Shown piece by piece: positions 22,908-53,559 of a stretch of 64,000 nt of DNA. The notes under the pieces are model-generated. The model was given only the letters and a program-made list of their open reading frames with translations. It had not been told where the DNA came from and ran no database searches. The translations under genes and the position numbers were made by a program. Location: the NCBI GenBank assembly GCA_048940605.1, contig JBHLOJ010000005.1, positions 8,254 through 72,253 of the forward strand. Direction: 5' to 3'. Origin of the DNA: Promethearchaeota archaeon. GTDB taxonomy: Archaea; Asgardarchaeota; Lokiarchaeia; Sigyniarchaeales; SOKP01. The first letter of the stretch is position 1, and the number at the start of each line of letters is the position of its first letter.

Positions 22908-23423
22908 TCAAGATATATTTACTAGCCTAATAATGTCCAGCTTTTCTAATTTCTTAAGGGCATCATTAATATCATTTCTTTTTCTATTTAAAGTTCTTGA
23001 AATCTTCAATGGAGAGGTTTTCCCCGAGCATAATAATGCGATTTGAAATTCAAAATTATCAATCATTCCCATGGTCAATACTTTTTCTAATACATTTTTA
23101 GCAATAAGTAATTTTGGGAATACCTCTGCTATTTTCCCTCCTATAGTCAGATTCTCAATATCTGCATTTAACGTTTGGAACCTACTTTTTTCGGTTGTAG
23201 TTCGGAATACTTTAAGATCAGATTGGTGTTTTTTCCAAAAACGATTAGCAATTTTATGAATAACTTCTTTTATTTTTTCAGTATCATCATCCGCATCTGA
23301 AATTGAACAGAAAAGAATTCTAGATAAAGGATGATAATATATAAAAATTGTTGAATCTTCAGACTCAACTACTCTATTCATCTCATTTACTCGTCTTCCT
23401 TTTTTCATTGATTCTTGTATCAT
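22908..23423 (-). CDS. soluble longin-like + winged-helix protein (annotated part; the homologous frame continues upstream to 23579)
   Basis: Homologous to the cytoplasmic tail of the 1391-aa protein. The C-terminal wHTH-like segment is KTSPLKISRTLNRKRNDINDALKKLEKLDIIRLV. See the finding on the in-frame TAA. Confidence 0.55.
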   Translation of the reverse strand: MIQESMKKGRRVNEMNRVVESEDSTIFIYYHPLSRILFCSISDADDDTEKIKEVIHKIANRFWKKHQSDLKVFRTTTEKSRFQTLNADIENLTIGGKIAEVFPKLLIAKNVLEKVLTMGMIDNFEFQIALLCSGKTSPLKISRTLNRKRNDINDALKKLEKLDIIRLVNIS

Positions 23424-23757
23424 ATCAATTGTTTTATTAATAGCATTAAAAAATCCAGTTAAAGATCTATCTTGAATTTTCTTTAATTCTTTAAATGTTG
23501 TTTCAAAAATTGAGATTCCGTTATCTGCATCGATTAAATATGTTTTATATATAATAGAATCCTCAACCTGACTTTTTCGTTAAGAGATGTAAAAGTTAAA
23601 ATTTGCTTCTATCATTAAACACATAAAAATTTACTATAATAAACGTATCCGAACAAAAACTAAGATATCCATTTCATCTAATAACTAAAGAAATAAAATT
23701 ATAAGTTGAGAGTTTTATACATTTTATAATAAAAATTAATATCCTACAATTTTAACA

Positions 23758-24951
23758 ATGAAAGATAAGGCTAAGTACATTGTAATATATTTACTTTTTT
23801 TCCCTATTGTATTTTCAGCTTATTCAACAAGCCCATTGCTTTCTATGGCATCGTATACTAATCCCTCCATTGCATCACCGATTTTTGGTGTTTCTAATTT
23901 TGAAATAACTCAAAATGTAACATACCAAGTTGAAATCAATTTTACACTGACACAAACCATAGGATCTGGAAATTATTATTTTAAATTTTCTAGAATAAAT
24001 AGTTCATTAGATTTTATGTATACACCACCATATCAAGATAGCGAACTTCTATATAACAATATAACGGGATACGATACGATCCTTATGAATGTTAAAGATA
24101 AATTTAACAATACTCATGATTGGTTTAATGCTACGTTAGGTGCTGGAGAAAATGTTTCAATAAGTCAAAAATATATTGTCGGATTGAATGCAATTAAATT
24201 TTCTGGGATCAGCGAATCTGAGATTGGGATGTATGACACTGCAGATGAAATGTTTGAATTATACTGTAATAAATCAGAACCTTATTATGAAAGGAATGAC
24301 ACGTCTTTAATTTCGTTATCAAATAGTATTGTAAATCCTAGCGATAATCCTATAGAAAAAGCAAAAAAGATTTGTAATTGGGTTTCTGATAATATTGAAT
24401 ATACCGGGGATCTACCTAACGAGATGGGAGCTTTTTGGGCATATAATAATTCAAAAGGTGATTGTAGTGAGTTTTCAAGCTTAATGATTACATTATTGCG
24501 AATTCAAAATATCCCTGCTCGTAAAGTAACAGGTTATTTAGTATCGAATAATCCTTCATTACGCCCAAAACCAGGGGATACGTGGAGTTTTAATGCCAAT
24601 GAAATTATGGGACATGCATGGATGGAATATTATGTTCCTGATATAGGATGGATAGCTTGTGATCCCTTATGGGGATATTTTAATAGAATCGATTATCTTC
24701 GCTTTAATTTAAATGTGGGTGCGAATTTTTTCTTTCCACCTAGTTATATTATAAGTGAATTCGATACATTATTCTATGCAACTTCAGGATTCCATAATTA
24801 TGATTACAACATTACCATTACTGTTATAGAATCTAATCTCGCTCCTTTAGATTCAGTTCCATTGATGTTTTATTTGTTTATTGGAATTGGGTTAGCTGCA
24901 GTATTAATCACTGTTCTTCTTATAATACGAATTAAGAGACACAAAGGATAA
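23758..24951 (+). CDS. secreted, C-terminally anchored transglutaminase-like cysteine protease-fold protein
   Basis: N-terminal signal (YIVIYLLFFPIVFSAYS). Transglutaminase core Cys-His-Asp (GDCSEFSSLM, GHAWMEYY, ACDP). C-terminal TM helix plus RIKRHKG. Confidence 0.75.
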   Translation: MKDKAKYIVIYLLFFPIVFSAYSTSPLLSMASYTNPSIASPIFGVSNFEITQNVTYQVEINFTLTQTIGSGNYYFKFSRINSSLDFMYTPPYQDSELLYNNITGYDTILMNVKDKFNNTHDWFNATLGAGENVSISQKYIVGLNAIKFSGISESEIGMYDTADEMFELYCNKSEPYYERNDTSLISLSNSIVNPSDNPIEKAKKICNWVSDNIEYTGDLPNEMGAFWAYNNSKGDCSEFSSLMITLLRIQNIPARKVTGYLVSNNPSLRPKPGDTWSFNANEIMGHAWMEYYVPDIGWIACDPLWGYFNRIDYLRFNLNVGANFFFPPSYIISEFDTLFYATSGFHNYDYNITITVIESNLAPLDSVPLMFYLFIGIGLAAVLITVLLIIRIKRHKG

Positions 24952-24984
24952 TATTAGTGAATATTAAATTATTTTATTTTTTTT

Positions 24985-26451
24985 TTAAATATACGTATGA
25001 ATTAAATCTACAAGGTTTTTAGAAAAATCTGGTAAATTCTTTTCAATTTTTTCGATTTGGAGAGATTTTTCAATAAATAATAGCAAGTATAGATTATACT
25101 TATCAACCTGGATTTTTTTAAATATTATTTTTTTCGATTCATCTGCTATTCCTGAAGATACTAGAAAATCCTGTTGTAAAATCTTGAACTCTTTGAATGT
25201 TTTATACAGTTCTTGAAAATGAGGAGCAGAAATTTCAAATACTTTTTCAGAAATTTCATCTTTAGAAAAATTAGATAAAATAATTCCATTTTCATTTAAT
25301 AATAATATTGCATCTGAATTGGTTTTTTTAGCAAACTTTTTTAATTGATTTCTAAATAGTTCCCGATTAGGACTCAATTGTGAAAGCCCAAAGGAATATG
25401 CTGTTATTAGACTCCAGTGATCGAAAATACTAGTTTGGAAAATCTTAATTAAGAATCTATCAGAATTCTTCTCTATCTCATCAGCAATTATCTCTAAATT
25501 CTTAAAAATTTCTTTTGAGCCTTTTAAATCTGGATCAAATTTATTTAAGCAAATTACGATAGGAGGGAATTCCTCCAAATCAATTAAGGAGTCTATAATC
25601 TTTCTGAAAAGCTTTAAAGCTTCTCCAATCCTATCAACGTCTTGAATATCAATAAAGAAGTAAATTAGATCAACATTATATAGATAAACTTTACTTTGTT
25701 CAAGGAATCTCTCTCGGTATTGTTTTTGACCAGCTAAATCCCATAGTGTGATCACAGAATTTTGCTCTTCAAAAATATGTTCTTCAGATCTTTCGACTCC
25801 CCTAGTAGGTAAAGCTTTTATAATTTCTGAATACCTTCTTCTTATCCCTAATAGAAAACTTGATTTCCCTGCTTTATCTAATCCTGTTAATAGTACTTTG
25901 ATTTGACGCCTTACAGAGAATGGATCTTTTAGATCTTTTGTGAACTCAAACAATTCCTCTCTAATTTCATCCATAATTCTTTTATGATCGTCCAGTTCTT
26001 TATCTGTTTGTATCTGTGTAGCTGCTTTATCAATCATTATTCTCAAATATTTCATGTTTTCATAAAAAAAGACTCTATCATCCTCATTGATTAATATAGT
26101 AATAGTAGCGGCTAGAGCTTGACCACGTGCAGTTTCTTCAGGAATGAGAAAAAAATATGTTAAACCATTTAATTTCAAATCTGGAAATGGTAAGATACCG
26201 AAATAGTTAACTCCTACATCTGAACCTTGTGAGTCTTGATAAACTGAATCACCCATAAGCAAACTTATAGTTTTCATAGCAATTAAAAGTCCAGATTTCT
26301 CATCTAAATCAATGGGCCAAACAACTCTAGGTGTTGGACCTCTTTCATCGAATATACTTAAAACAATTGCTTTTATTAAGTCAGAGTTGTCAATCTCTGC
26401 ATTTTCTTTATTAACTTGTTTCCCATTCAATTTAGATTCGTTATTAGTCAA
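24985..26451 (-). CDS. three-domain GTPase: novel N-terminal longin-like domain + Rag/Gtr1-like G domain + C-terminal roadblock domain
   Basis: G1 GLDKAGKS, G3 WDLAGQ, G4 NKFD. The G5 region and junction QTSIFDHWSLITAYSFGLSQLSPNRELFRNQLKKFA resemble RagA [34 protein letters not shown]. About 130 aa follow with a roadblock-like alpha-beta-beta-alpha-beta-beta-alpha pattern. Confidence 0.7.
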   Translation of the reverse strand: MTNNESKLNGKQVNKENAEIDNSDLIKAIVLSIFDERGPTPRVVWPIDLDEKSGLLIAMKTISLLMGDSVYQDSQGSDVGVNYFGILPFPDLKLNGLTYFFLIPEETARGQALAATITILINEDDRVFFYENMKYLRIMIDKAATQIQTDKELDDHKRIMDEIREELFEFTKDLKDPFSVRRQIKVLLTGLDKAGKSSFLLGIRRRYSEIIKALPTRGVERSEEHIFEEQNSVITLWDLAGQKQYRERFLEQSKVYLYNVDLIYFFIDIQDVDRIGEALKLFRKIIDSLIDLEEFPPIVICLNKFDPDLKGSKEIFKNLEIIADEIEKNSDRFLIKIFQTSIFDHWSLITAYSFGLSQLSPNRELFRNQLKKFAKKTNSDAILLLNENGIILSNFSKDEISEKVFEISAPHFQELYKTFKEFKILQQDFLVSSGIADESKKIIFKKIQVDKYNLYLLLFIEKSLQIEKIEKNLPDFSKNLVDLIHTYI

Positions 26452-28571: not shown

Positions 28572-29402
28572 GTGGAATATATGTTAAATTCATATTCTGA
28601 ATCTTCTCTTCATGATTTTTTTACTGAGATTCACAACATTTTGAGAGAAACAAATCCTAAAATAATTGAGATATGGTGTGAAATATCAAAAATTTCCTTT
28701 TTTAATAGATTGGAAAAGACAGAGTTTTATGAATTTATAGATAAATTTGATTTTATATCTCTCAGAAAGGGGAATTATATCTATTATATCGTAATTAATA
28801 AGATTTTATTTATTATTGATTGTATGAGCTTCCTGAAATATGACATCATCTATCTTTCTGAAATTTTAGACTATAATGGATTTGAGGTTTTAATAAAGGA
28901 GATTTTATTAAGAAATAATTATAAGGCAATAACTAATTTTAGATTTTCTGTGAACCCAAAGTTAAAGTTAAAATCAAACATTCATCATAAGAGATATGAG
29001 ATTGATGTTATTGGAATTTATTTAAAATATGTTATAATCATTGATGCAAAACAATGGAGGCGTAAAGATTCCTATGGATCACTAAATAGGGCAGCAAATC
29101 TACAATATAACCGTATTATGGCGTTAACACAAAATCCAGAAGCTTTTTTAAGACTTATTATTTCAATCTTAGGTGAAAGGTTCGATGTAGGGGGGCGTTT
29201 CTCTTTCATTCTTCTGCCTATAATGGTTACTCTCGAAGATAACAGCATAAAGTTAAATGAAAATCAGATACCACTGGTGTCAATACACGAATTGAATGCT
29301 TTTTTACAAGAGATCCCTAATAATCTAAATTATTTTAAAACTCTTCAAATTGATAAAGAAATTCTTAATAAGAATATAAATTATTTTTCTAAGCCCAAGT
29401 AG
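28572..29402 (+). CDS. hypothetical protein with a putative PD-(D/E)xK (Mrr-cat/NERD-like) nuclease core
   Basis: GFEVLIKEILLRNNY ... YEIDVIG ... VIIIDAKQW fits the FE..v..ll / D / (D/E)xK pattern of restriction-endonuclease-fold proteins. Confidence 0.4.
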   Translation: MEYMLNSYSESSLHDFFTEIHNILRETNPKIIEIWCEISKISFFNRLEKTEFYEFIDKFDFISLRKGNYIYYIVINKILFIIDCMSFLKYDIIYLSEILDYNGFEVLIKEILLRNNYKAITNFRFSVNPKLKLKSNIHHKRYEIDVIGIYLKYVIIIDAKQWRRKDSYGSLNRAANLQYNRIMALTQNPEAFLRLIISILGERFDVGGRFSFILLPIMVTLEDNSIKLNENQIPLVSIHELNAFLQEIPNNLNYFKTLQIDKEILNKNINYFSKPK

Positions 29403-30421
29403 TATTTTATTTGCTTTTTTATGAGATTAATAGCAATAGAAATAATCCCACTTTTCACTTTGGGATGAGAAAATAGAATTAATATCATATCTTTTAAATT
29501 TGGATTTTCTCTATCGATGGGTGCCAAATCTAATATACCTTCACTTCCTTTAACACTTATGGATTTAAGGTTTCCTGCACTTAATCCATGAATAATATCA
29601 GAACCAATCATTGAAAGATTCATTCCAATTGTACTAAACAATGATTCAGAAATCCTACTTGAAATAGCTGAAGCTAACATTGTTCCATCTGTTTTTATAA
29701 TCGCTGAAGCTTCAATTCGAGAATCAAGTGTAATTAATTCGTTTAAAATTTCATTCATGTTGGCGGGAGGTATTTTTTTCTCAGGCTCTATTTTAGCTTT
29801 TGATTCGGTTACATGTGGTTCTAATTTCTTTACCGAAATTTTTTTTGATAAGAAACTTAAAACCTCAGTCATATCTTTTTCTAGTCTTTTTTGTTTTAAT
29901 AAAGAAACCTCGGTTTCATCCGTCCTGGAAGGAATAGGTTCTAATGAAGGTTTTAGTTCTTCTTTCTCCTCTTCGAGCATTGATTGTTTAAGTTCTGAAA
30001 ATGCATCAGAAATGGGATCTTTTCTATTTGGTATTAGTGAACTCTGGAATGGTTTTGGTGGTATTTCTTGTAGTGCTTGGCTATTATCTCTTTCTATTTC
30101 TCGTTCAGTTTCGCTTAAACCATCATTAAAAGAATCGATTTCACCCATCTTGCTGTCTTCTGATGGGATTTCATCAAGATTTAATTCTATATCTTTTGGA
30201 ATTTCCTGTAATTTAACCTTTTCTTCCTTTTCATCTATAGTTTCAATTGATATCTCAATCCTTTCACGAGGAGATAATTCTTGATCTATTTTTTCCGATT
30301 TCTTTTTCTTGGATTTTTTTCTATCAGACTTGGAAGAGATTGGGAGTAAAGCCCCACATTTTCTACACGTACGGCTCACTGCTTCGTTATTTGTTGTACC
30401 ACAGTTCTGGCATATGATCAT
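29381..30421 (-). CDS. Zn-ribbon + disordered K/E-rich linker + Roadblock/LC7 (MglB-like) domain protein
   Basis: N-terminal CQNCG...CRKCG. C-terminal EASAIIKTDGTMLASAISS...LFSTIGMNLSMIGSDII...LKSISVKGSEGILDLAPI is a typical Roadblock/LC7 pattern. Strong SD GGAGGGGAG lies 8 nt upstream of the ATG. Confidence 0.75.
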   Translation of the reverse strand: MIICQNCGTTNNEAVSRTCRKCGALLPISSKSDRKKSKKKKSEKIDQELSPRERIEISIETIDEKEEKVKLQEIPKDIELNLDEIPSEDSKMGEIDSFNDGLSETEREIERDNSQALQEIPPKPFQSSLIPNRKDPISDAFSELKQSMLEEEKEELKPSLEPIPSRTDETEVSLLKQKRLEKDMTEVLSFLSKKISVKKLEPHVTESKAKIEPEKKIPPANMNEILNELITLDSRIEASAIIKTDGTMLASAISSRISESLFSTIGMNLSMIGSDIIHGLSAGNLKSISVKGSEGILDLAPIDRENPNLKDMILILFSHPKVKSGIISIAINLIKKQIKYYLGLEK

Positions 30422-30657: not shown

Positions 30658-31635
30658 CTACTTATAAATAATCTCTTTAATTATATTTGCAAAAGTTTCA
30701 AAATCTTCTTTTTGAAAAACGGGATCATCCTTAAGTAACAATAAATAATAGGGAGTTGACTCTTTTTTCAATGTTATCTGTTTAAATATAAAATTTTTTC
30801 CAAATCTTTGGAGTAGCATCCTATCTTCGTATCTATTTTCTTGTACTCCCGTATATTGGAGTGAATCTGAAAGGGTAAGAAAATAAGGTGTCGAAGCGGT
30901 GAGTAAATGCTTAGTTTCTTCATTCTTATAATATGCACCAATCACTAGAGAGTTATCATCAATAACCACCACTCCTTCTGAGTCAATTTTCTTGGCAAAC
31001 TCGATTATTGTTTTTTCAATGAGTTCCGATTTTGGATATAAGCTTAGTAGAATTTCTGACATTGCCCTTATAATAGTTCCAAAATCATAAATGGAAGTCT
31101 CATAAAAATATATTTCCTTATAATCAGTAGCGCTTTTTACTTTCTCTTTTAAATCTATGATGAGATTTTCCATTTCATTTCGTGCTCCTCTTCGTAAGGC
31201 AGGATCATATTTATGAAGAAATACATATATGGGAGGTTCAATTTCTAATTCATAAAATTGTTTAATTACATCCTTAAAATAGCTAATAGCTTCAGGGATT
31301 CTGGGTTTATTTTGAACATCGATAACATAGATTGCAATTTCAGTACCCTCGAAAAATTTACCTGGATTCTTTAAATATGAGATTCTATAGCTAATTTGTC
31401 CACCTAAATCCCATTCTGAGATTTCTTTTCCTAGAAAATCGAAAACCCTTCTTTGGGCACCTCTAGTTGGAGATAATACAGCAATTTTTGAAAATTCTCT
31501 TTGAAGAGACAGTATAATGCTGGTCTTCCCCGCATCATCCAATCCAGTGAATAATAATTTTGAGGGCTCTGGTTTCTGTGGCTCTTCCTTTTTCAAATAC
31601 ATTATTGATTGTTTTAGATCTTTCTCCAAAGTCAA
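30658..31635 (-). CDS. Rag/Gtr1-family GTPase (G domain + C-terminal roadblock domain)
   Basis: 325 aa (human RagA is 313 aa). G1 GLDDAGKTS, G3 WDLGGQ. G4 is HKYD, which matches the Rag-type HKxD rather than NKxD. AIYVIDV (RagA LIYVFDV). ETSIYDFGTIIRAMSEILLSLYPKS (RagA [23 protein letters not shown]). Roadblock-like C-terminal 125 aa. Confidence 0.75.
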   Translation of the reverse strand: MTLEKDLKQSIMYLKKEEPQKPEPSKLLFTGLDDAGKTSIILSLQREFSKIAVLSPTRGAQRRVFDFLGKEISEWDLGGQISYRISYLKNPGKFFEGTEIAIYVIDVQNKPRIPEAISYFKDVIKQFYELEIEPPIYVFLHKYDPALRRGARNEMENLIIDLKEKVKSATDYKEIYFYETSIYDFGTIIRAMSEILLSLYPKSELIEKTIIEFAKKIDSEGVVVIDDNSLVIGAYYKNEETKHLLTASTPYFLTLSDSLQYTGVQENRYEDRMLLQRFGKNFIFKQITLKKESTPYYLLLLKDDPVFQKEDFETFANIIKEIIYK

Positions 31636-31725: not shown

Positions 31726-33093
31726 TTATAAATTATTAGTAATAAATAATTTAAAATCTTCATATTCCTTAATTTCTATTGGATTAGGGAATTCCTTTCT
31801 ATTTTGAATGATCTCCAGTGCATTAGGTAGTTTTGGTTTAACTTTTATTAATGAGATAATTTCATCTGGAAATTTTGCGGGATCAGCAGTTTCAAAGGTA
31901 ATAGATTTAATTTGTTTATGAGAAGAATAATTTTTACGATAGGTTTGAAGAGCTGCCCATCCTACAGCACCATGTGGTTCGATAATTTTTTTATATCTTC
32001 TATAAAAATCTATTATTGTTTCTCTTGTTAAATTATCACTTATAGAATAAGAAATTATATTATCTCTTAGTTTTTCCATATCTGGACTTTTTAAAATAGA
32101 TCCATTTTCATCAATTTGACCCTGATATAAATCAAAGATACGGGCTAAATTGCTGGGGTTCCCAACATTCATAGCAGATGATAAGCAATTTCTTGATGGT
32201 TCAATTTTGTTGTAAATTCCAGAACTTAAAAATTTCGGAAACTCGTCATTCTCATTCACAGCCGAGACAAATTTACCTAGAGGCAATTCCATTCTAGATG
32301 CTATAATACCAGCTGTAAGATTGCCAAAATTACCTGAGGGTACTGAAAAAATGACTTTTTCATTTGGGTGTTGGATAATTCGTGAATAACTCCAAAAGTA
32401 ATAAATAGTTTGAGGAATAAGACGACCAATGTTAATAGAATTTGCAGATGACAAGTTAAAATCCTGTAAATCTTTATCTGCAAAAGCAGTTTTAATAATT
32501 CTTTGGCAATCATCAAATTTTCCATTTATGCCTATTGCTGTAACATTTTTTCCTAAGGTGGTCATTTGTTTTCTTTGAAGTAGACTAATTTCATCTTTCG
32601 GATAGAGAACAACAACTCTAATTCTTGACATTTCATGAAATGCCTGTGCAACTGCGCCTCCCGTATCACCTGAAGTTGCTGTTAATATTATTATTTCTTT
32701 ATCTTCAGTTGAGAGGAAATATTCCATTATTCTTGCTAAGACTCTTGCTCCAAAATCCTTGAAACTACAAGTAGGACCTTTACTTAGATAGCAAAGATAA
32801 TCAAATTTTTCAATTTTTTCCAATCCAATTTCAAAATTTAGAGCATTATGTATAATTTTTCTTAAAGACTGTTCTGGTATTTGCTCTTTAAGAATTTTAG
32901 ATAAGACCTTAAACGCAATTTCTTGTAAATTTAAATCTCCAAAACTAAATATCTCTTGATGTTCCAGAGTTGGAATTCTATTTAACATGTACAAACCTTT
33001 ATCTGAAGCTTGGCCTTTTAAGATGGCAGTCTTAAAGTCGACATCTGGAGCGCTGTAATTTGTTGAGTGAAATTTTATCATAACCGATCTCAT
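31726..33093 (-). CDS. thrC: threonine synthase
   Basis: PLP-lysine motif TCSFKDFGARV, TATSGDTGGAV and SGNFGN, with threonine synthase length and order. Confidence 0.85.
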   Translation of the reverse strand: MRSVMIKFHSTNYSAPDVDFKTAILKGQASDKGLYMLNRIPTLEHQEIFSFGDLNLQEIAFKVLSKILKEQIPEQSLRKIIHNALNFEIGLEKIEKFDYLCYLSKGPTCSFKDFGARVLARIMEYFLSTEDKEIIILTATSGDTGGAVAQAFHEMSRIRVVVLYPKDEISLLQRKQMTTLGKNVTAIGINGKFDDCQRIIKTAFADKDLQDFNLSSANSINIGRLIPQTIYYFWSYSRIIQHPNEKVIFSVPSGNFGNLTAGIIASRMELPLGKFVSAVNENDEFPKFLSSGIYNKIEPSRNCLSSAMNVGNPSNLARIFDLYQGQIDENGSILKSPDMEKLRDNIISYSISDNLTRETIIDFYRRYKKIIEPHGAVGWAALQTYRKNYSSHKQIKSITFETADPAKFPDEIISLIKVKPKLPNALEIIQNRKEFPNPIEIKEYEDFKLFITNNL

Positions 33094-33099
33094 TTATAT

Positions 33100-33642
33100 C
33101 TATTTTAATAATTCGTTGATTTTGTTGATTGCTTCTAGTGGAGAACTTACACCATATATCATGTCATTTCTTCTATTATCTAACTTTTGATTAGCCATCT
33201 TAGAAGACCAACCTTGAACAGATGATAAGGCAACTAAAGGTTTATCATATATCCAGGCAAAACAAATCTCAGATAAAGTTCCTGCTTTACCACTAATGGC
33301 TAAACATAAATCACCTGTAAGAACGACAACAATATTTCTAGCTTGGGAAAAGGGACAAGGTATTACAAGATCTACGTATTTATTAGCATAGTTTTTTTCT
33401 GTATGAGGAATAATACCGATAGTAAAACCGCCCTCTTCTTTAGCACCTTTACATATTGCTTCCATTACGCCAGAAAGTCCCCCACATGCCACAGCATAAT
33501 TATTTTTTGCGATTAATCTACCAATTTCTATAGTAATATTTTCTATCTCTTTATCAATTTCACTAGCTCCAATAACAGAAATTACCGCTTTAAACTTATT
33601 TTTAAAATTAAAACTCATAAAGTCATATCCCCATCTTGTCAA
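33100..33642 (-). CDS. TIGR00725/LOG-like Rossmann-fold nucleotide-binding protein
   Basis: VIGAS....., GGLSGVMEAICKGAKEEGGFTIGIIP, SGKAGTLSE. Confidence 0.65.
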   Translation of the reverse strand: MTRWGYDFMSFNFKNKFKAVISVIGASEIDKEIENITIEIGRLIAKNNYAVACGGLSGVMEAICKGAKEEGGFTIGIIPHTEKNYANKYVDLVIPCPFSQARNIVVVLTGDLCLAISGKAGTLSEICFAWIYDKPLVALSSVQGWSSKMANQKLDNRRNDMIYGVSSPLEAINKINELLK

Positions 33643-33653
33643 TTAAAAATCAA

Positions 33654-36454: not shown

Positions 36455-37960
36455 ATGGAGGAATTATTTGAAACCTCAATTATAAAGGGGTTAATTTTCA
36501 GTTCATATGGAGACTTAGGTCCGCAACCAATTTATGTATGGCCTAAATATTATACTGAAAAAGAATTAGAAAAGATTAAAGAGGAAAGGCAAAGACAAAA
36601 CCTTCTTACATTAACAACCAGAGATGTAACCCAAATCTCTATAAAAAACCTTAGTTTATTTATTAGCGATAAGGTATTTACACCAGATATTGATACTCAA
36701 AATTTAACGTATTTCGCCATATTACCTTATCCAGATTTCAGTGTAACCTCTTTAACATATTTTCATTATATTAATATTAATTCTTCTAACTCTCAGATCC
36801 CTACTGCTTTTTCAATATTAGTTGAAGAAAATAGTAGAAGTTTTTTATATAATAATATAAACAGAATTAAACCTATTGTGATTGAATTTTTCAGATCATT
36901 TGATAATAATTTGATAGATAATTATCCACCTCAAGAGAAAATAGAGCCTGCTTTTTATGAATTATTCAAAAAGATAGTTGAAATTGAGAGAAGTCCATCA
37001 ACACCTATTACAACCCATAGAAAAATGAAGATTCTATTTGCTGGATTAGATGACAGTGGAAAAACTAGTTTTTTACTTTCTGTAGATCGCAAATATAGTA
37101 AGTTAATAGGTTTAAAACCAACAACAGGGGCAAGTATCAAATCAATTGAGGCTTTGGGAGCAACAATATTTTTATGGGATCTGGGAGGTCAACTTACTTT
37201 TAGAAAGAAATATATTACTAAAGCAGAAATTTATTTATATGAAGCAGATTTGTTGTTTTATTTTATTGATATCAGAAACAAAATTAGGTTTGAAGAAAGC
37301 ATTGAATATCTTTTAGATTTGAAAAAAGTATTGAAGCAGTTTAATCAAAATACTCCAATCATTTACATTTTATCAAAGGGAGATTCGGATATAATTAAAA
37401 CTGGAGAAATTATAGAAAATATCGAAATTGTGAAAAATAGATTAAATGAAATTTCACCAGAAGAATCCCCTGAGATATATGTGACTAGTATCTTTCAAAT
37501 ATTTACCATATTGAGAGCATTCTCATCTGGAATCTCAAAATTGAGCCCTAATAGAAATTTAATCAATCATAATCTTAGAAACTTCTCGATAAAAACAAGT
37601 TCATATCTTACACTGTTGTTAAGTGTAGATGGTTTAGTTTTGGCAGATTTTTATTCCCCTAAAGCGAGTAAATTAACAAAGATAACTGAATCAGAAGAAA
37701 TAATTAACGTGTTTGAGGTAACAGCACCGCAATTCGCCATGTTATTTAAAATATTCTCTAGATTTAAAGCGTTGCAACAAGAAGAAGCGGTATTTAAAGT
37801 TGCAGACTCAGTGATACTTTTCAAAAAGATTAAAGTAGCAGAGAACGACATGTTCATCTTATTTCTGATTGATAGTGAAAAAAGAAAAGAAAAAATAAAT
37901 ACTAAATTAACCACTTTCCTCGATCAAACAAATGATCTACTCTTAAGATATATATCTTAA
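36455..37960 (+). CDS. three-domain GTPase, paralog of 24985..26451 (N-terminal longin-like domain + Rag-like G domain + roadblock domain)
   Basis: G1 GLDDSGKTS, G3 WDLGGQ, degenerate G4 SKGD. VTSIFQIFTILRAFSSGISKLSPNRNLINHNLRNFS junction. The N-terminal domain aligns with ORFs at 24985, 50014 and 51220. Confidence 0.7.
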   Translation: MEELFETSIIKGLIFSSYGDLGPQPIYVWPKYYTEKELEKIKEERQRQNLLTLTTRDVTQISIKNLSLFISDKVFTPDIDTQNLTYFAILPYPDFSVTSLTYFHYININSSNSQIPTAFSILVEENSRSFLYNNINRIKPIVIEFFRSFDNNLIDNYPPQEKIEPAFYELFKKIVEIERSPSTPITTHRKMKILFAGLDDSGKTSFLLSVDRKYSKLIGLKPTTGASIKSIEALGATIFLWDLGGQLTFRKKYITKAEIYLYEADLLFYFIDIRNKIRFEESIEYLLDLKKVLKQFNQNTPIIYILSKGDSDIIKTGEIIENIEIVKNRLNEISPEESPEIYVTSIFQIFTILRAFSSGISKLSPNRNLINHNLRNFSIKTSSYLTLLLSVDGLVLADFYSPKASKLTKITESEEIINVFEVTAPQFAMLFKIFSRFKALQQEEAVFKVADSVILFKKIKVAENDMFILFLIDSEKRKEKINTKLTTFLDQTNDLLLRYIS

Positions 37961-45890: not shown

Positions 45891-46631
45891 TTATAAATCG
45901 AGAGTTTCTATAAGGTTTTCAATAACATTAGGAAGTTCATACATATTTTTGACATAGAACGGAAATTGAGGTTTATATTCTCCGGTAATGCAAGCTTGAA
46001 TAATATTAGCTCCTACATTTAATGCATTCTCAAGAAATCGGGGTTGATCTTCAATTATTATAGCTTTAGTTGCATCCATTTTTGAATGTATAAAAATTTC
46101 TGCATAAAATTCTGGCTCAGATTTCCACGTATTAATCAAATCGGGTCCATAGAATTCTTTAAAATATTGAATAACTCCCATTGCTTTTAAGTACATCTTC
46201 ATTTCAGTTGAGTCTGCCCCTGCTGCGGTATAAAGAATAAAATCTCTCGAATGTAATTCTTTAATACTGTCAATTACTCCAGGGATTGCAGATCTGACCT
46301 TTGGTATAACATATTGCGTTGTCGCATTGAAAACTTCGAAATAGTTTATATTTTCTGGAAGTCTGTTCCCTGTTTCTCTAAACATCCCTGTAACCATCTT
46401 TTTTTTGAAATCATTATAGAAAGAGTTATAATCTCCAAATTTCTCCTTTATATCTCTTGAGAATTCGTTAAAAATTGAATTAATAAGTTTTTGGTTTGCT
46501 TCTCCCCAAGTTTCTGGATCCCCACCAAATCTCTTGGAATAATATTCTCCAACAAATGTTTTCCAATGCTCTCCACGAATCTTATTATCATTTAAAACAC
46601 CTCCATCATCAAAGAAAATAGCAAATGACAA
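45891..46631 (-). CDS. HAD-superfamily-like hydrolase (tentative)
   Basis: N-terminal IFFDDGGVLND and C-terminal IIIEDQPRFLENALNVGANII resemble HAD motifs I and IV. Motif I is not canonical DxDxT. Confidence 0.4.
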   Translation of the reverse strand: MSFAIFFDDGGVLNDNKIRGEHWKTFVGEYYSKRFGGDPETWGEANQKLINSIFNEFSRDIKEKFGDYNSFYNDFKKKMVTGMFRETGNRLPENINYFEVFNATTQYVIPKVRSAIPGVIDSIKELHSRDFILYTAAGADSTEMKMYLKAMGVIQYFKEFYGPDLINTWKSEPEFYAEIFIHSKMDATKAIIIEDQPRFLENALNVGANIIQACITGEYKPQFPFYVKNMYELPNVIENLIETLDL

Positions 46632-47061
46632 TTCTTCAGGCCTGATCTTTATTTATTCCAATTATAAAATGATAGTATAATGGAGATTTTATATTTAAAT
46701 TTTTTATTTTTAATTATCTATTTTATTTTTATAAAAAGGTAAACTCGGTGGTTAAAATCAAGGAAAATTTAGTAAAAAGATGAAAAATATTATTAAAATG
46801 AAGAATTATTAACAAAAGAGGTTATAAGATAAAACTTCCTGTATCATTAGTTAAAACATGGAATTATTATCTTGTTTTATTGATTAGTTTTTCCGTAAAT
46901 TCTTAATTATCTACAAACTACTTGAATAATTTATATTTTCTCCACTTTATTGGATTATTTAATCTTAAGCGAAGCATAAACAAGAGAATAAGTAAAGATG
47001 AAAGAAATTTTATGATTTATAAAGATAAATATTATGTAATCAAGCGAACAGAAAGACATAA

Positions 47062-47904
47062 ATGTCATTAGAAAAATTTCTGCATTGTCTAAGTTGTGGG
47101 AGAATTCTTAGTGGAAAAGAGGAAGCACATCCTTATTGTTCAGAATGTATATTAGATTTGGATTTTAAAGCAGCAGATATTAACCATAAAGAATTAGATA
47201 AAAATCTTCAGAGGATTTTGGATTTTTTTATTTCTGATGTGAGGTCTGCTTTTACAAAAGATCCCGCCGCAAAATCTCTACTAGAGGTTCTTACGAGTTA
47301 CCCTGGAATAAAAGCTATACTTCTCCATCGAATTGCACATTTCTTTTGGAAAATTGGTATGCCTTATCTCCCAAGATATTTATCTGATATTGCACGAGAA
47401 ATGACTGGTATAGAGATTCATCCAGGAGCAGAGATCGGAACTGAATTCTTCATAGATCACGGTGCAGGTGTTGTTATCGGAGAAACTACCGAAATTGGGA
47501 ATAATGTAACTCTTTATGCTGGAGTTGTATTAGGAGGAACTTCTTTAGAGCAAATAAAGAGACACCCCACAATCGGTAATAATGTGGTTTTAGGTACAGG
47601 CGCAAAAGTTTTAGGTCCAATCCGAATTGGCGATAATGTGAAAGTTGGGGCGAATTCTGTTGTGGTCACTGATGTACCTCCTAATTCAGTTGTAGTTGGA
47701 GTTCCAGGAAAAATTATTGCGAGAGAAGGTGAAGTAATTAAAAAGATAGACTTAGCCCATGGGGATCTTCCAGATCCTTTGGCTATTACACTTTCAACGT
47801 TAAATTCAAGGCTTGATTATCTTGAAAATAAACTCTTAAATCAAGAAGATCGTAAAAAACGCAATATTGAGATTTATTTTGGTGAATATGGAGATGGAAT
47901 TTAA
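47062..47904 (+). CDS. cysE: serine O-acetyltransferase with an N-terminal Zn-ribbon-like extension
   Basis: DPAA.S..E.L..YPG..A...HR.AH, GIEIHPGAEIG..FFIDHG.GVVIGET and hexapeptide repeats. The extra N-terminus is CLSCG...CSEC. Confidence 0.8.
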   Translation: MSLEKFLHCLSCGRILSGKEEAHPYCSECILDLDFKAADINHKELDKNLQRILDFFISDVRSAFTKDPAAKSLLEVLTSYPGIKAILLHRIAHFFWKIGMPYLPRYLSDIAREMTGIEIHPGAEIGTEFFIDHGAGVVIGETTEIGNNVTLYAGVVLGGTSLEQIKRHPTIGNNVVLGTGAKVLGPIRIGDNVKVGANSVVVTDVPPNSVVVGVPGKIIAREGEVIKKIDLAHGDLPDPLAITLSTLNSRLDYLENKLLNQEDRKKRNIEIYFGEYGDGI

Positions 47905-47967
47905 AGTCTATAATCAAAAACCTCCTATAAAAATAATTATAATTTAATATAAAAAAAGGTGAGATGT

Positions 47968-48891
47968 ATGCAAAAAATATTTAATAACATTATAGAAACA
48001 ATTGGAAATACTCCATTGGTAAAATTAAATCGAATTACTGAAAATATCAAACCAAATATATATGCTAAGATCGAAGCTTTTAACCCTGGTTCAAGTGTTA
48101 AAGATAGAATTTGTATGGCAATGATCAATACCGCTGAGGAAGCAGGGATTTTATCTAAGGAAATAACCGTTGTTGAACCCACGTCAGGTAATACAGGAAT
48201 TGGTTTAGCTTTAGTTTGTGCTGTAAAAGGTTATAAACTAATTCTTACGATGCCTGAAAGTATGTCTCTTGAAAGAAGGAAGATTTTAAAAGCTTATGGA
48301 GCAAAATTGGTATTAACCCCTGCTTCTGAAGGTATGAAGGGCGCTATAGAAAAAGCAGAAGAACTTGGCAGGGAAAATGATAAAATATTCATTCCTCAAC
48401 AATTTAAGAATCAAGCTAACCCAGAAATTCATAGAAAAACAACTGCTGAAGAAATTATTAGAGATTTAGATGGAAAAATACACGGTTTTGTAGCTGGAAT
48501 TGGAACCGGAGGTACTATAACGGGTATAGGTGAAATCTTAAAAGAAAAAGTAGGAAATTATGTAAAAATTTATGCTGTGGAACCAAAAGATTCTCCAATA
48601 TTGTCAGAAGGTAAATCAGGACCACATAAGATTCAAGGTATTGGTGCGGGGTTTGTTCCTGATGTACTTAATACAAAAATATATGATAAAATCATACAAG
48701 TTGCTTATGAAGATGCAGTAGACACATCTAGACAATTAGCAAAATTGGAGGGTATCTTCGTAGGCGTTTCCGCTGGTGCTGCTGTTTGGTCTGCAATTAA
48801 TGTAGCATCAAAAGACTTTGAAGAAGGGCAAAATATTGTTGTAATTTTACCCGACACAGGGGAGAGATACTTAACAACAGATTTATTTTAA
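47968..48891 (+). CDS. cysK: cysteine synthase A (O-acetylserine sulfhydrylase)
   Basis: IGNTPLV, PLP-Lys NPGSSVKDR, EPTSGNTGIGLA, GIGTGGTITG. I prefer the ATG at 47968, which follows an AGGTGA SD-like word, over the GTG at 47959. Confidence 0.85.
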   Translation: MQKIFNNIIETIGNTPLVKLNRITENIKPNIYAKIEAFNPGSSVKDRICMAMINTAEEAGILSKEITVVEPTSGNTGIGLALVCAVKGYKLILTMPESMSLERRKILKAYGAKLVLTPASEGMKGAIEKAEELGRENDKIFIPQQFKNQANPEIHRKTTAEEIIRDLDGKIHGFVAGIGTGGTITGIGEILKEKVGNYVKIYAVEPKDSPILSEGKSGPHKIQGIGAGFVPDVLNTKIYDKIIQVAYEDAVDTSRQLAKLEGIFVGVSAGAAVWSAINVASKDFEEGQNIVVILPDTGERYLTTDLF

Positions 48892-50013: not shown

Positions 50014-51054
50014 ATGGAAAGACAAATAATTAGGGGCATTATATACAATACTCTAGATGAGCAGATTGGTCCTAATCCTAAAGTATACCTACCAGAGGAT
50101 TTTTCTCAATTAGATTTACTCCATATTAGTGTCAAAACTTTTGCGGTTCTTACAGGTGAGGGAGGACTTATACCTGAATCCTTGGTCGTATTACCATTTC
50201 CATCCTTACAATTAAAAGGATTGACTAAATATATGCAATGGGAAGATCCTGATAAACGAGGTGGCGTTGGTCATGCCAATATCACAGTTTTGTTTCAAGA
50301 AATGGATGATGTAATTTTTTATAAATATATAAAGGAAATTTCAGTTCCTTTTAATGAAATTGTTCAAAATATTACGTTCTTAGAAAAATCTAATGCAAAT
50401 GAAGACCAATTTTTAAATGAATTAATAAACCTTGAAAATGGAATTACTGAACTTTTAGAGTATCTGAGAAATCAAGAATTAAAAGAATCTAAAATCGAAG
50501 CTTTAGATCAAGCCATAGATCGAAGTATGATTGATTTTCAATTTAAGATAATTGTAGTTGGGGATCCGACCGTTGGAAAAACAAGTTTAGTCTTAAGATA
50601 TACGAATAATGCATTTAGGAGATCATATGTTTCTACGATGGGAGTTCATGTTTCTAATAAAATTTTTAGAGCTGATGATTCTACAATTATTCAACTTGTT
50701 TTATGGGATGTGGGAGGTCAAGAAAGATTTAAAATTATGAGAAAACAGTTTTATCAAGGATCCGATGCGGTATTTTTAGTTTTTGACTTAACAAATCCTG
50801 AAACATTCAGTAATATCCCCGTTTGGTTTTCGGACATTAAAAAACAAATGGAATTACGTGGCGAAGATCTTATAGGTTATGTCATTGGTAATAAAAAAGA
50901 TTTGGAGAATGAAAAGAAAATTACTAGTGAGGATGCTCAAAGATTAGCCCAAAAGTTTAATTTAGAGTATCTTGAAACGTCAGCTTTATCGGGAGAAAAT
51001 GTAGATTATGCCTTCACAACTCTCGCTAAAATACTTTACAAGTCTAGAATGTAA
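50014..51054 (+). CDS. two-domain GTPase: novel N-terminal longin-like domain + Rab/Ras-like G domain
   Basis: G1 GDPTVGKTS, switch I YVSTMG, G3 WDVGGQERF, G4 GNKKDL, G5 ETSALSG. The N-terminal 125 aa align with the N-domains of ORFs at 24985 and 36455. Confidence 0.75.
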   Translation: MERQIIRGIIYNTLDEQIGPNPKVYLPEDFSQLDLLHISVKTFAVLTGEGGLIPESLVVLPFPSLQLKGLTKYMQWEDPDKRGGVGHANITVLFQEMDDVIFYKYIKEISVPFNEIVQNITFLEKSNANEDQFLNELINLENGITELLEYLRNQELKESKIEALDQAIDRSMIDFQFKIIVVGDPTVGKTSLVLRYTNNAFRRSYVSTMGVHVSNKIFRADDSTIIQLVLWDVGGQERFKIMRKQFYQGSDAVFLVFDLTNPETFSNIPVWFSDIKKQMELRGEDLIGYVIGNKKDLENEKKITSEDAQRLAQKFNLEYLETSALSGENVDYAFTTLAKILYKSRM

Positions 51055-51069
51055 AAAACACTAAATTTC

Positions 51070-51219: not shown

Positions 51220-52245
51220 ATGTCTCAAGAGATTATCAAAGCAATCATATATACTTCGCTTGATGAAAACCTCGGTCCGAATCCTGTTTTATGGATTCCA
51301 CTTGATTTACCAGAAAAGATTCGTATGGGTGTAAGTATTAAAACTATTACTATGCTTACCACTGATCAAGGAATAGTTCCTAATTCATTAGTAATAATGC
51401 CTTTCCCTGCCTTCAAATTAAAAGGAATTATAAAATATATTGAGAGAGAAGATGACTCTCGACGAGGAGGTGTAGCATTATCATCAATAGCCCTGTTGTT
51501 TAATGAGACGGATGATCCTATTTTTTATAAGTATATGGAATATCTTGAGCCCATATTTTCTGAATGTGCTAACAACCTTATTGTTTTAGAAAATGGGGAA
51601 GCAAAAAGTGATGAAATCTTTATTGAGATACATCATTTCCGTCAAAAATTAACTGAATTATTAGATGATTTATATCAAAAAGAAATAACATCTTCTGAAA
51701 TAGAAGCTTTTCCTGAGGAGGAAATTAAAGAAGAATTACTAGAGTATAATTTCAAATTGATCGTATGTGGTGATCCAGGAGTAGGAAAAACTAGTACAAT
51801 TTTAAGATTCACAGATAACGCTTTTATGCGAACTTATGTGCCTACCCTTGGTGTAAGCATTTCCGAAAGACTAGTATCATTAGGAGATAAACACATCAAT
51901 CTAATTTTGTGGGATATCGCAGGACAATCAAAATTTGAAATAATGAGAAGACACTTTTATAAAGGTACCGACGCCGTGATTCTAATATTTGATCTGACAA
52001 ACCGTAAATCATTTGAAAGTGTTTCTAATTGGATTAATGATATAAGAAAATATGAGCAGGAAATAATAGGGCTAATTTTAGGAAATAAGGAAGATCTAAT
52101 AGGTGAGCGAAAAATTCCTACTGAAGAAGCCTTAGAGATTGCTAAAACTTTTAATTTTGAATATGCTGAAACATCTGCATTAACAGGTAAAAATGTAGAG
52201 CAAAGTTTTTATAAAGTAGCAGAAACTTTATTTAAATCAAAATAA
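51220..52245 (+). CDS. two-domain GTPase, tandem paralog of 50014..51054
   Basis: G1 GDPGVGKTS, G3 WDIAGQSKF, G4 GNKEDL, G5 ETSALTG. Same N-terminal domain (IIKAIIYTSLDENLGPNPVLWIP, MPFPAFKLKG, LLFNETDDPIFYKYMEYL). Confidence 0.75.
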   Translation: MSQEIIKAIIYTSLDENLGPNPVLWIPLDLPEKIRMGVSIKTITMLTTDQGIVPNSLVIMPFPAFKLKGIIKYIEREDDSRRGGVALSSIALLFNETDDPIFYKYMEYLEPIFSECANNLIVLENGEAKSDEIFIEIHHFRQKLTELLDDLYQKEITSSEIEAFPEEEIKEELLEYNFKLIVCGDPGVGKTSTILRFTDNAFMRTYVPTLGVSISERLVSLGDKHINLILWDIAGQSKFEIMRRHFYKGTDAVILIFDLTNRKSFESVSNWINDIRKYEQEIIGLILGNKEDLIGERKIPTEEALEIAKTFNFEYAETSALTGKNVEQSFYKVAETLFKSK

Positions 52246-52266
52246 TAGTTTTAAATTTGAAATAAT

Positions 52267-52842
52267 ATGGATCTAGAAGAAATTATAAACAAAAGGAGGA
52301 CCATACGGAGATTTAAACAAGACCCACTCTCTTTAGATATATTAAAAAAATTAGTAGATTTTGCTCGTGTTGCTCCTGCGGCAAGGAATATTCAAGCGAT
52401 TGAATATATTATTGTTGAAAATATGGAAATGAGAAAAAAATTATTTCCATTGGTAAGATGGGCAGGATCACTACCTGAGGAACAGAGAACCCCAGAACCG
52501 GGAAGAGAACCTACTGCATATATAATAGTGCTTGTAAACACAAAAATTAAAAGACCATTTGTAGATTTTGATGTAGGAGCCGCTGTTGAGAATATATTAC
52601 TTGGTGCAATAAACTTTGGAATTGGAAGTTGTTGGATGGCTGCGATAGATTATAAAAAAATACCAGAATTATTAGAGATCCCTGAACATTATGATTTAAA
52701 GCAAGTCATTAGTTTAGGATATCCAGATGAAGAATCTGTCATGGAAACTTACAAAGATTCATTCAAATATTGGAAAGACTCTGACGGGAAAATGCATGTT
52801 CCTAAAAGAGATTTAGATGATATAATTCTTAAAATATACTAA
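52267..52842 (+). CDS. nitroreductase-family flavoprotein
   Basis: RRTIRRF, APAARNIQA, and the size and pattern of the NfnB/NADH-oxidase nitroreductase fold. Confidence 0.75.
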   Translation: MDLEEIINKRRTIRRFKQDPLSLDILKKLVDFARVAPAARNIQAIEYIIVENMEMRKKLFPLVRWAGSLPEEQRTPEPGREPTAYIIVLVNTKIKRPFVDFDVGAAVENILLGAINFGIGSCWMAAIDYKKIPELLEIPEHYDLKQVISLGYPDEESVMETYKDSFKYWKDSDGKMHVPKRDLDDIILKIY

Positions 52843-52989
52843 GAAGAAAACTATATTAAAGAAGTCATACCCTTGAAATGTTCTGCAGTTATGATTGCAT
52901 CTTTTATTTTAATTCCATCTTCATTATTTAAAATATCTAATAACTGCTTTGCATTTTCTACTATTACTTCTTTTAAAGAGAGGATGATT

Positions 52990-53559
52990 CTATTTTGAAT
53001 CCTTTAATTCATTAAGGGTCGCTTTAGATTCATGGTATAATTTTTTGATTATAGCTTGAAAGGCATCATATACACGTTCGCCTGTTTTCGCTGAGGTTAA
53101 ATAATAACCAAGAAGGTTTTTTTTCTTTACTAATCTTTCAATTTTAGCATTATCTATATTATCCTTATTAACAAGATCAACTTTATTAGCGAAAATTATA
53201 ATAGGTATGGCTCCACAAAATTGCTTTAAATCGTCATACCAATGTATAACATTCTTAAGACTTTCCTTACCAAGCTTATTTTCTTCAAGTGAATAAACAA
53301 TTATTCCTGCTCTACTGTCCTTATAAAAAGATGGACGTAAGAAATGAAACTCATCCTGACCAGCGATATCCCAAAAAAATAACAAGCATTGATCATTTTC
53401 TATTTCCTCTACATATTTCGAAAATTGGGCTCCTAATGTTTTTATATATTCTTTTTGGAAACTACCTTTAGTAAATTTTTGAATTAAACTAGTTTTTCCC
53501 ACCATACCATCTCCAACGACAGTAACTTTAAACTTAAATATATCTTGAGGTTTATTCAT
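52990..53559 (-). CDS. stand-alone Rab/Ras-like small GTPase
   Basis: G1 GDGMVGKTS, switch I YIKTLG, G3 WDIAGQDEF, G4 ANKVDL, G5 TSAKTG. 189 aa with no C-terminal Cys. Confidence 0.8.
   Translation of the reverse strand: MNKPQDIFKFKVTVVGDGMVGKTSLIQKFTKGSFQKEYIKTLGAQFSKYVEEIENDQCLLFFWDIAGQDEFHFLRPSFYKDSRAGIIVYSLEENKLGKESLKNVIHWYDDLKQFCGAIPIIIFANKVDLVNKDNIDNAKIERLVKKKNLLGYYLTSAKTGERVYDAFQAIIKKLYHESKATLNELKDSK

Follow-up and report, generated by a model that had tools for sequence, protein, structure and literature searches.

The window analysed here is a 64-kb stretch of contig JBHLOJ010000005.1 from a Promethearchaeota archaeon (assembly GCA_048940605.1). It holds six small GTPase genes within 31 kb, called G1 to G6 from left to right, with a roadblock-type protein R and a longin-like protein L encoded among or beside them. 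We consider it probable that this locus is a stable piece of chromosome of a Lokiarchaeia-type Asgard archaeon, carries GTPases of known classes and is coupled only in sub-parts. Good candidates for the coupling are only three: G1 with a transglutaminase-like protein (TGase) and L, G2 with R, and G4 with G5. The most promising case of a selected association among them is the G1–TGase–L triad.

Small GTPases and their longin and roadblock partners are central to the debate on the origin of eukaryotic membrane traffic and nutrient signalling, and matching the Asgard GTPases to their regulators is hard because they rarely share operons. The locus offers three handles. One is a set of fusions that tie a longin of the FLCN/SMCR8 type, with a GP motif and a candidate arginine finger, to Rag-like and Rab-like GTPases. 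Another is a matched pair, G1 with the arginine and G3 without it. The third is the neighbourhood of G2, G1 and L, which is conserved as far as the cultured MK-D1 and is testable there. Asgard archaea are already known to have these gene types; the locus leaves the current picture unchanged and sharpens where to look.

Six small GTPases of two classes

The open reading frames (ORFs) of the 64-kb window were mapped greedily into 58 genes, and almost all of them were run against Pfam. Rfam and tRNA scans of the window gave no matches. The original prediction of Ras-superfamily genes at 24985, 30658, 36455, 50014, 51220 and 52990 is confirmed as exactly six genes. Their Pfam scores of 68–161 bits on Gtr1_RagA or Ras are far above the gathering cut-offs of about 22. 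They are laid out as follows (aa, amino acids).

G1, 24985..26451, minus strand: 488 aa, Gtr1_RagA 84 bits; predicted longin domain at about aa 19-180, Rag/Gtr1-like G domain at about 185-360 and C-terminal Rag-type domain at about 356-488
G2, 30658..31635, minus strand: 325 aa, Gtr1_RagA 95 bits; G domain and C-terminal Rag-type domain, without longin
G3, 36455..37960, plus strand: 501 aa, Gtr1_RagA 68 bits; predicted longin, Rag-like and C-terminal domains in the layout of G1
G4, 50014..51054, plus strand: 346 aa, Ras 161 bits; predicted longin module and Rab/Ras-like G domain at 178-341
G5, 51220..52245, plus strand: 341 aa, Ras 160 bits; tandem paralogue of G4
G6, 52990..53559, minus strand: 189 aa, Ras 134 bits; stand-alone Rab/Ras-like GTPase

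All six keep the nucleotide-binding motifs G1–G5 (here names of motifs, not genes) intact, namely the P-loop, the switch-I Thr, WDxxGQ, [N/H/S]KxD and TS[A/I]. None of the six has a C-terminal Cys. A local hidden Markov model (HMM) of the six G domains was searched against all stop-to-stop ORFs of at least 50 aa and found no further GTPase in the 64 kb, the next match (expectation value, E, 0.08) being a ParA/MinD-type ATPase. Thus, six GTPases that look functional, of two already described Asgard classes, lie within 31 kb.

The two classes form two groups 12 kb apart, the Rag/Gtr-like G1, G2 and G3 on the left and the Rab/Ras-like G4, G5 and G6 on the right. The six genes are on both strands, with housekeeping genes for NrdD, ThrC, Hom, AIRS, MtrH, TBP, PpsA and CysK between them. 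Pfam places all the GTPases in the Ras superfamily as had been expected; it leaves the expected roadblock and longin domains undetected, and these needed the more sensitive tests described below.

The left GTPases are 34–36% identical to one another and have Gtr1_RagA as the best Pfam family and Arf as the second. G1 aligns to residues 7-240 of RagA and 4-237 of Gtr1, past the G domain into the Rag C-terminal region (RagA 181-240), and among solved chains an ARF/SAR chain, 6a8d_A (E 2.5e-12), ranks above Gtr1/RagA (about 1e-10 to 1e-11). The top solved match of G2 is 8yl2_A, a 342-aa 'GTP-binding protein', over the full length (E 6e-87), and its best eukaryotic ones are RagA/Gtr1 (about 1e-12) with Arl3 close behind. 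G2 has HKYD as its fourth motif and TSIYD...AMS in the region of the fifth. We take HKYD, and the TSI[F/Y]D...A[M/Y/F]S of G1–G3, to be like the Rag/Gtr1 versions of the motifs.

A C-terminal module of about 130 aa is common to the left three (G1 versus G3, E 3e-19; G1 versus G2, E 6e-9). Neither Pfam (E up to 5) nor hhalign links it to roadblock. The homology to 8yl2, the alignment to RagA/Gtr1 and the published MK-D1 models predict for it the Rag-type roadblock fold.

The right GTPases are Rab/Ras-like, the best solved matches of G4 being Rab26, Rab8 and Rab1 (E 1e-33 to 1e-36). G4 and G5 are 49% identical in the G domain and 41% in the longin module, and G6 is 34–35% identical to both. No prenylation Cys is found within the last 10 residues of G4, G5 or G6, so they are to be called Rab-like or RasL rather than Rab. 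In published phylogenies the Asgard RasL proteins fall outside the true Rabs (bioRxiv 10.1101/2024.02.28.582541).

Conserved gene order across relatives

G2 orthologues of 78–95% identity are present in 12 species-representative metagenome-assembled genomes (MAGs). The labels of these twelve closest species, all Promethearchaeota or Promethearchaeia, and the G+C content of 27–33% across the window agree with the Asgard, Lokiarchaeia-type host that had been proposed. G6 is encoded identically on JBHLMM010000011.1 (91.9 kb, MAG GCA_048938155.1) and in two independent read-set assemblies. An assembly artefact is ruled out by the same arrangement in independent assemblies and in 12 other MAGs.

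Two neighbours of G1 are needed to read the order.

Transglutaminase-like protein (TGase), 23758..24951, plus strand: Transglut_core 92 bits, N-terminal signal or transmembrane segment and C-terminal transmembrane segment; between L and G1
Nuclease-like (NERD/Mrr-like) protein, 28572..29402, plus strand: weak NERD match; between the G2/R pair and G1

Wherever the contigs reach, the 12 species share the order MTase–21558–HhH–L–TGase–G1–NrdD–nuclease-like–R–G2–(ThrC)–SLOG–(Hom–ACT)–AIRS–G3–MtrH–TM297–TBP–CxxCxxCC–Macro–PpsA, where MTase is a methyltransferase and 21558 is named by its position. One further metagenomic contig, L016, has the same order with an L of 71% identity. Within the block the GTPases and L are the most conserved at 75–95% identity, next to 49–78% for NrdD, 52–87% for TGase and 58–88% for TBP.

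A part of the block reaches the distant MK-D1 (CP042905.2). There, the counterparts of G2 (47% identical), the nuclease-like protein (26%), G1 (39%), TGase (30%) and L (39%) are together, along with those of HhH, the 21558 gene (36%), MTase (31%) and the CxxCxxCC protein (43%). The nuclease-like counterpart has a weak Mrr_cat match and the same position. G1, TGase and L are again found together in L037, a third divergent contig, at 42%, 29% and 31% identity, respectively. Hence, the genes are not dispersed in relatives, the alternative that the original prediction had raised against itself: the order from L to TBP is kept in 12 species and one contig, and the core block at 26–47% identity in MK-D1.

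Within the clade of the window, R follows G2 in every locus that reaches the position. ThrC, Hom and ACT are missing from three loci (L011, L012 and L015). On the right side, locus L038 reads TBP–CxxCxxCC–Macro–PpsA–UPF0147–TM236–G4, with a G4 of 70% identity and without HAD, hexapeptide-transferase and PALP, and L039 reads PpsA–UPF0147 and a G4-like gene (50%). In a Helarchaeales MAG, a G5 homologue of 46% identity has another context, 1.3 kb from a small Arf/Gtr1-like GTPase, and the right-hand Rab-like group is not kept in that genome. A metagenome scan with G4 found one short relevant contig; the rest are weak matches of the G domain only (27–36% identity), mostly on short contigs.

The ThrC/Hom/ACT genes (31726-35257, minus strand) are present or absent as a unit in a fixed order, and so are the HAD, hexapeptide-transferase (CysE-like) and PALP (CysK-like) genes (45891-48891). 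Both units appear to have been gained or lost in particular lineages within a block that is otherwise stable. Contig L016 has gained two things: a small PIN-domain (toxin-antitoxin-like) pair that separates NrdD from the nuclease-like gene (4214-4854 of that contig), and a transposase near the CxxCxxCC gene (18064-19551).

Several other genes hold fixed positions. A SLOG cluster-4 protein (33100-33642, minus strand; 137 bits) is upstream of G2, directly where ThrC is absent and otherwise with only ThrC between; this placement holds in every locus of the clade of the window and is not seen in the MK-D1 block. The MtrH-family methyltransferase subunit (37979-38881, minus strand; 188 bits) is convergent with G3 at an 18-bp gap and is conserved in position within the same clade. 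Two paralogous CxxCxxCC (PF03692) zinc/iron-chelating-domain proteins (18297-18920 and 41073-41816, both plus strand) also keep their positions, the first also in MK-D1. The PpsA/PPDK-like protein (42530-45442, plus strand) has 970 aa with an expanded phosphoenolpyruvate-binding domain and is 76–89% identical in relatives; a Sec10_N match to its C-terminal tail of about 100 aa is below threshold and probably spurious.

Longin and roadblock modules

An N-terminal module of about 165–175 aa, overlooked in the original prediction, is common to G1, G3, G4 and G5. The modules of G1 and G5 are 31% identical (E 2e-19) and closer to each other than their G domains are. The other comparisons give E values of 8e-17 for G1 and G3, 5e-48 for G4 and G5 and 3e-15 for G4 and G1. 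The module is homologous among the four GTPases and therefore crosses the divide between the Rag-like and the Rab-like. A search with the four modules found 85 proteins, in which the module is fused to Gtr1/Arf-type or Ras-type domains, and those with source names are all from Asgard-labelled MAGs or marine-sediment metagenomes.

For the G1 module, AlphaFold2 run on an alignment of 61 sequences gave a model with a predicted local distance difference test score (pLDDT) of 88 and a predicted template-modelling score (pTM) of 0.86. Its elements are in the longin order, beta-beta-alpha-beta-beta-beta-alpha-alpha. The top Foldseek match in the PDB is 8yqg (E 2.5e-7, TM-score 0.71-0.74), the solved 'Longin domain from a Lokiarchaeota archaeon Roadblock-Longin protein', and Lst4 (yeast FNIP), GATOR1 Nprl2/Nprl3, FLCN and SMCR8/C9orf72 come next. 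The four-sequence profile also matches 8yqg_A by sequence (E 0.006) with the GP motif aligned, and Pfam gives only a faint Folliculin match (E 0.085) over the beta4-beta5 loop. By the model, the modules of G1, G3, G4 and G5 are longin domains of the FLCN/SMCR8/Nprl2 type, or GAP longins (GAP, GTPase-activating protein).

The GP motif is at the beta1-beta2 turn, before strand 2, with the glycine in 60 and the proline in 59 of the 61 sequences. All 38 sequences of the G1 and G4/G5 types have an Arg-Gly in the beta4-beta5 loop, and the 23 of the G3 type, whose loop is one residue shorter, all lack it. In full-length numbering these are G38-P39 and R109 in G1, G19-P20 and R82 in both G4 and G5, and G22-P23 with no arginine in G3. 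A GP motif just before strand 2, adjoining a catalytic arginine finger, is reported as the signature of the GAP-active longins FLCN, NPRL2 and SMCR8/C9orf72 (PMC12290439). We infer from the topology that the loop arginine of G1, G4 and G5 is a candidate arginine finger equivalent to FLCN R164, Nprl2 R78 and SMCR8 R147. By the longin strand order, the GP and arginine loops would share the same sheet edge.

Such fusions have precedents. Lokiarchaeum encodes 41 longin-like and 38 roadblock domains, some of them fused (PMC4917890), and 26 of the 74 GTPases of MK-D1 carry roadblock or longin domains (PMC10933270). Both longin–GTPase and longin–GTPase–roadblock fusions have been described for the two organisms; an arginine finger of the fused longins is not a topic of the MK-D1 paper. 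The pair of GP and arginine finger occurs also in stand-alone Asgard longins, for which a 2025 survey poses the partner GTPases as a question (PMC12290439).

Outside the GTPases, three proteins had been assigned roadblock or longin modules.

R, 29381..30421, minus strand: 346 aa; zinc ribbon, basic stretch, acidic low-complexity linker and putative roadblock/LC7 domain at about aa 215-346
L, 22908..23555, minus strand: 215 aa; modelled longin-like domain and C-terminal helix-turn-helix (HTH); narrow Asgard-only family, no Pfam family
Receptor-like protein, 14076..18251, plus strand: 1391 aa; signal or transmembrane segment 12-35, large ectodomain, transmembrane segment 1113-1148 and 245-aa cytoplasmic tail

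The R orthologues align in a CxxC...CxxC ribbon, a basic stretch, an acidic linker that varies except for three short conserved motifs, and a C-terminal domain of about 130 aa that is highly conserved. Pfam finds in R only the zinc ribbon (Zn_Ribbon_1, residues 4-24) and no Robl_LC7 even at E up to 5 on the isolated domain. The last 140 aa match a solved Robl_LC7 domain-containing protein, 7f8m_A, at E 4.9e-5 over 85 residues and the roadblock 9jue_D at E 0.1 over 115 residues. The profile of this domain did worse than the single sequence, with designed 'Cake' repeat proteins dominating and 7f8m at E 0.009. The proposed roadblock/LC7 identity of R, which Pfam fails to support and the 7f8m_A match favours, can be held with moderate confidence from sequence. 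The R and nuclease-like genes converge, and their 3′ ends overlap by 22 bp (29381-29402).

The L gene appears longer than called. The ORF as called has 171 aa from an ATG at 23423 and lacks the first two strands and the first helix of the domain. The L orthologues have 211 aa and begin with MIYKxYLID..., and 44 in-frame codons upstream of the ATG are conserved with them. This stretch offers no ATG, GTG or TTG start for the extended L. An ATT at 23555 aligns with the orthologue start codon and has GGTTGAGGA 5 nt upstream. The upstream conservation and this alignment therefore set the gene at 22908-23555 with 215 aa.

The same arrangement of ATT and GGTTGAGGA is found in four species (the window, L006, L007 and L009), and L005 also has ATT at the aligned codon. 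The start codon is TTG or ATG in more distant relatives. Hence, L appears to start at a non-canonical ATT, and the standard ORF calling drops 44 residues.

The model of the 215-aa L (pLDDT 74, pTM 0.58) runs beta-beta-alpha-beta-beta-beta-alpha-alpha and then four helices. Its top 50 Foldseek matches are nearly all longin or roadblock proteins, including VAMP7, Sec22b, sigma-adaptins, TRAPP subunits, LAMTORs and MglB, with weak scores (E 6e-3 to 0.1, TM-score at most 0.5). Neither the L profile against PDB sequences nor L against Pfam, even at E up to 5, gives a match for a longin domain. A winged HTH comes from a TrmB match of 21.8–22.5 bits, below the Pfam cut-off of 25.6. As predicted, L thus models as a soluble longin-like plus HTH protein, with weak longin matches, a sub-threshold HTH match and a gene that had been under-called.

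The L family is narrow. It has 432 close homologues, the best 120 of which are 71–91% identical, and an exhaustive HMMER search of 1.84 billion proteins gives 46 clusters at 50% identity with full-length members of about 200–240 aa. The same search with the L profile found no long receptor-like member. The 1391-aa receptor-like protein, said to carry the longin-like module of L, matches no Pfam family, its tail none even at E up to 5. The profile of its tail homologues does match the L profile weakly (probability 35%, E 4e-4) in 51 columns over strand 1, strand 2 and helix 1. These are suggestive of an L-like beta-beta-alpha start, possibly with a C-terminal HTH-like region.

The shared modules of the original prediction hold in part. 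The longin module unites G1, G3, G4 and G5, and the C-terminal module G1–G3. Save for the weak match of L and the tail, no profile–profile similarity is detected that would link these two modules, L, R and the 1391-aa tail to one another. Profile–profile comparisons among the N-terminal longin, L, the C-terminus of R and the Rag C-terminus find no similarity, with probabilities of at most 2%.

Two other features are in the right part of the window. Two DUF998 membrane-protein paralogues flank an opposite-strand Hsp20 gene (53754-55968), the first having also a C-terminal TPR segment. A 698-aa protein (58122-60218, minus strand) has about 12 predicted transmembrane segments and a C-terminal endonuclease/exonuclease/phosphatase domain, whose best match is the PGAP2IP (CWH43) C-terminal nuclease-like family (82 bits). 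Its layout presumably resembles that of the eukaryotic glycosylphosphatidylinositol-remodelling protein CWH43/PGAP2IP.

Coupling within the locus and likeness to known systems

The six GTPases are denser than expected by chance. As the baseline we took MK-D1, with its 74 GTPases (PMC10933270) in a 4.32-Mb record, that is, 141 windows per genome. At this density 0.52 GTPases are expected in 30.65 kb, and the probability of at least six is 1.9e-5. It becomes about 0.003 after correction for the 141 windows, and about 0.03 if the G4/G5 tandem is one event. By the MK-D1 density, the enrichment is real but modest and is partly tandem duplication.

Judged by the spacing, only two runs of genes could be co-transcribed, G4–G5–nitroreductase (gaps of 165 and 21 bp) and ThrC–G2–R (90 and 236 bp). 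Several further points weigh against the reading of a stable block with coupled sub-parts. The MK-D1 block has no NrdD, R or ThrC, and G3 is not seen within reach there. An L homologue of 27% identity has no GTPase nearby, and for TGase, a surface protein anchored in the membrane, no link is obvious. The placement of the loop arginine relative to the nucleotide pocket comes from topology, and the roadblock fold of the G1–G3 C-terminal domains comes from homology and the published MK-D1 models. Moreover, as Tran et al. (2024, PMC10933270) report, GTPase genes and roadblock or longin genes of MK-D1 as a rule belong to separate operons. The conserved block also holds unrelated genes such as HhH, the methyltransferase and the CxxCxxCC protein, so descent alone could explain much of the synteny.

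Descent may be the only cause of the co-location, with old local duplications (G1/G2/G3 and G4/G5), slow rearrangement and no functional coupling. GTPases are about 2% of Lokiarchaeial genes (109 in 5381 in Lokiarchaeum; PMC4917890), G4 and G5 are clear tandem duplicates, G1–G3 are homologous, and the threonine and cysteine genes come and go with the block undisturbed. These agree with descent alone, as do the unrelated genes in the block and the MK-D1 operons above. However, the G1–TGase–L triad survives at about 30–40% identity in three lineages, while its neighbours NrdD, R and ThrC are lost or moved. The G2–R adjacency is kept throughout the clade of the window, and the corrected probability of 0.003–0.03 also speaks for more than descent. 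We thus regard descent alone as a serious alternative that is still rather unlikely.

A single integrated network had been suggested instead, in which the six GTPases, R, L and the 1391-aa receptor work in one pathway and are kept together for it. The enrichment above chance, the order kept in 12 species and one metagenomic contig, the one longin module in four of the six GTPases and the weak likeness of L and the receptor tail are in line with it. But the genes are on both strands with unrelated housekeeping genes interleaved, 12 kb separate the left group from the right, and in Helarchaeales the right group is not kept and its G5 homologue has a different context. The MK-D1 block shows neither G3 nor R, that block and the one in L016 lack the receptor, and L, R and the longin and C-terminal modules have no sequence relation. 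The connected regulatory network is not borne out, and we find it quite improbable.

Least credible by far is an amino-acid-sensing Rag system that would be tied to biosynthetic operons by analogy with Rag–Ragulator, with G2 and R after hom/thrC and G4/G5 after cysE/cysK-like genes: the minus-strand run AIRS–ACT–Hom–SLOG–ThrC–G2–R (gaps of 6–236 bp), the plus-strand Hexapep–PALP–TM236–G4–G5 and the leuB/leuA-like genes beside the Helarchaeales G5 homologue fit it, but in L011, L012, L015 and MK-D1 the otherwise identical block lacks ThrC, Hom and ACT, and there is no HAD, Hexapep or PALP in L038 and L039, where G4 directly follows UPF0147/TM236. The biosynthetic genes appear to be lineage-specific insertions because these otherwise identical blocks lack them. 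The synteny thus rejects the link of the Rag-like genes to amino-acid biosynthesis.

On the reading of a stable block with coupled sub-parts, how its proteins would work can be predicted from their eukaryotic and bacterial relatives. Each fused protein is probably a self-contained switch, in which the longin and C-terminal domains probably serve as dimerisation platforms under the nucleotide pocket, as in Rag–Ragulator–FLCN and MglA–MglB. The loop arginine near GP (R109 of G1 and R82 of G4 and G5) would act as the GAP arginine finger, either in cis or across a dimer. Because it has the GP motif and no arginine, G3 would serve G1 as a non-catalytic partner. R may be a roadblock platform for G2, and L could relay the GTPase state to DNA binding.

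A bolder proposal, which we put forward as tentative and on balance unlikely, is that G2–G1–TGase–L is a pre-eukaryotic Rag/FLCN-like switch with the GAP longin fused to its own GTPase. The arginine-bearing G1 and the arginine-less G3 would pair like FLCN–FNIP on RagA–RagC, L would give a transcriptional output, and the Rab-like G4/G5 carry the same GAP longin. If true, the GAP longin type served both GTPase classes before eukaryotes. It would also answer the 2025 question of which GTPases partner the GP-motif longins of Asgard archaea.

The best eukaryotic structural matches of the N-terminal module are the longin GAP complexes FLCN–FNIP, GATOR1 Nprl2–Nprl3 and C9orf72–SMCR8, which act on Rag and Arf GTPases. 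Like the FLCN/SMCR8-type longins, the module has GP at the beta1-beta2 turn and, in three of the four GTPases, an arginine in the neighbouring beta4-beta5 loop. Arginine-bearing and arginine-less paralogues coexist here as in FLCN/FNIP and Nprl2/Nprl3. In contrast to the eukaryotic proteins, the longin here is part of the same chain as the GTPase, a fusion in cis that occurs with Rag-like and with Rab-like G domains. It has no DENN half, and its identity to the eukaryotic proteins is 8–16%.

R resembles the MglA–MglB and Ragulator (LAMTOR) platforms in its roadblock/LC7-type end and in adjoining a Rag-like GTPase. It differs from them by the N-terminal zinc ribbon and the 190-aa charged linker, and Pfam Robl_LC7 does not detect it. 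G4–G6 are alike to the Asgard RasL/Rab-like proteins such as Thor-Rab, with Pfam Ras scores of 134–161 bits and, for G4, Rabs as the best solved matches. They have no C-terminal prenylation cysteines, and G4 and G5 bear the N-terminal longin.

G1–G3 match the Asgard RagGtr/Arf-like GTPases of Lokiarchaeum GC14_75 and Prometheoarchaeum MK-D1 (PMC10933270, PMC4917890) in the G domain that fits Gtr1_RagA best, in the C-terminal Rag-type domain and in having no lipidation signal. Nothing fundamental sets this locus apart from those systems. What it adds to their picture is the GP motif in the fused longins, the split into an arginine-bearing G1 and an arginine-less G3, and the conserved neighbourhood with L and the transglutaminase-like protein.

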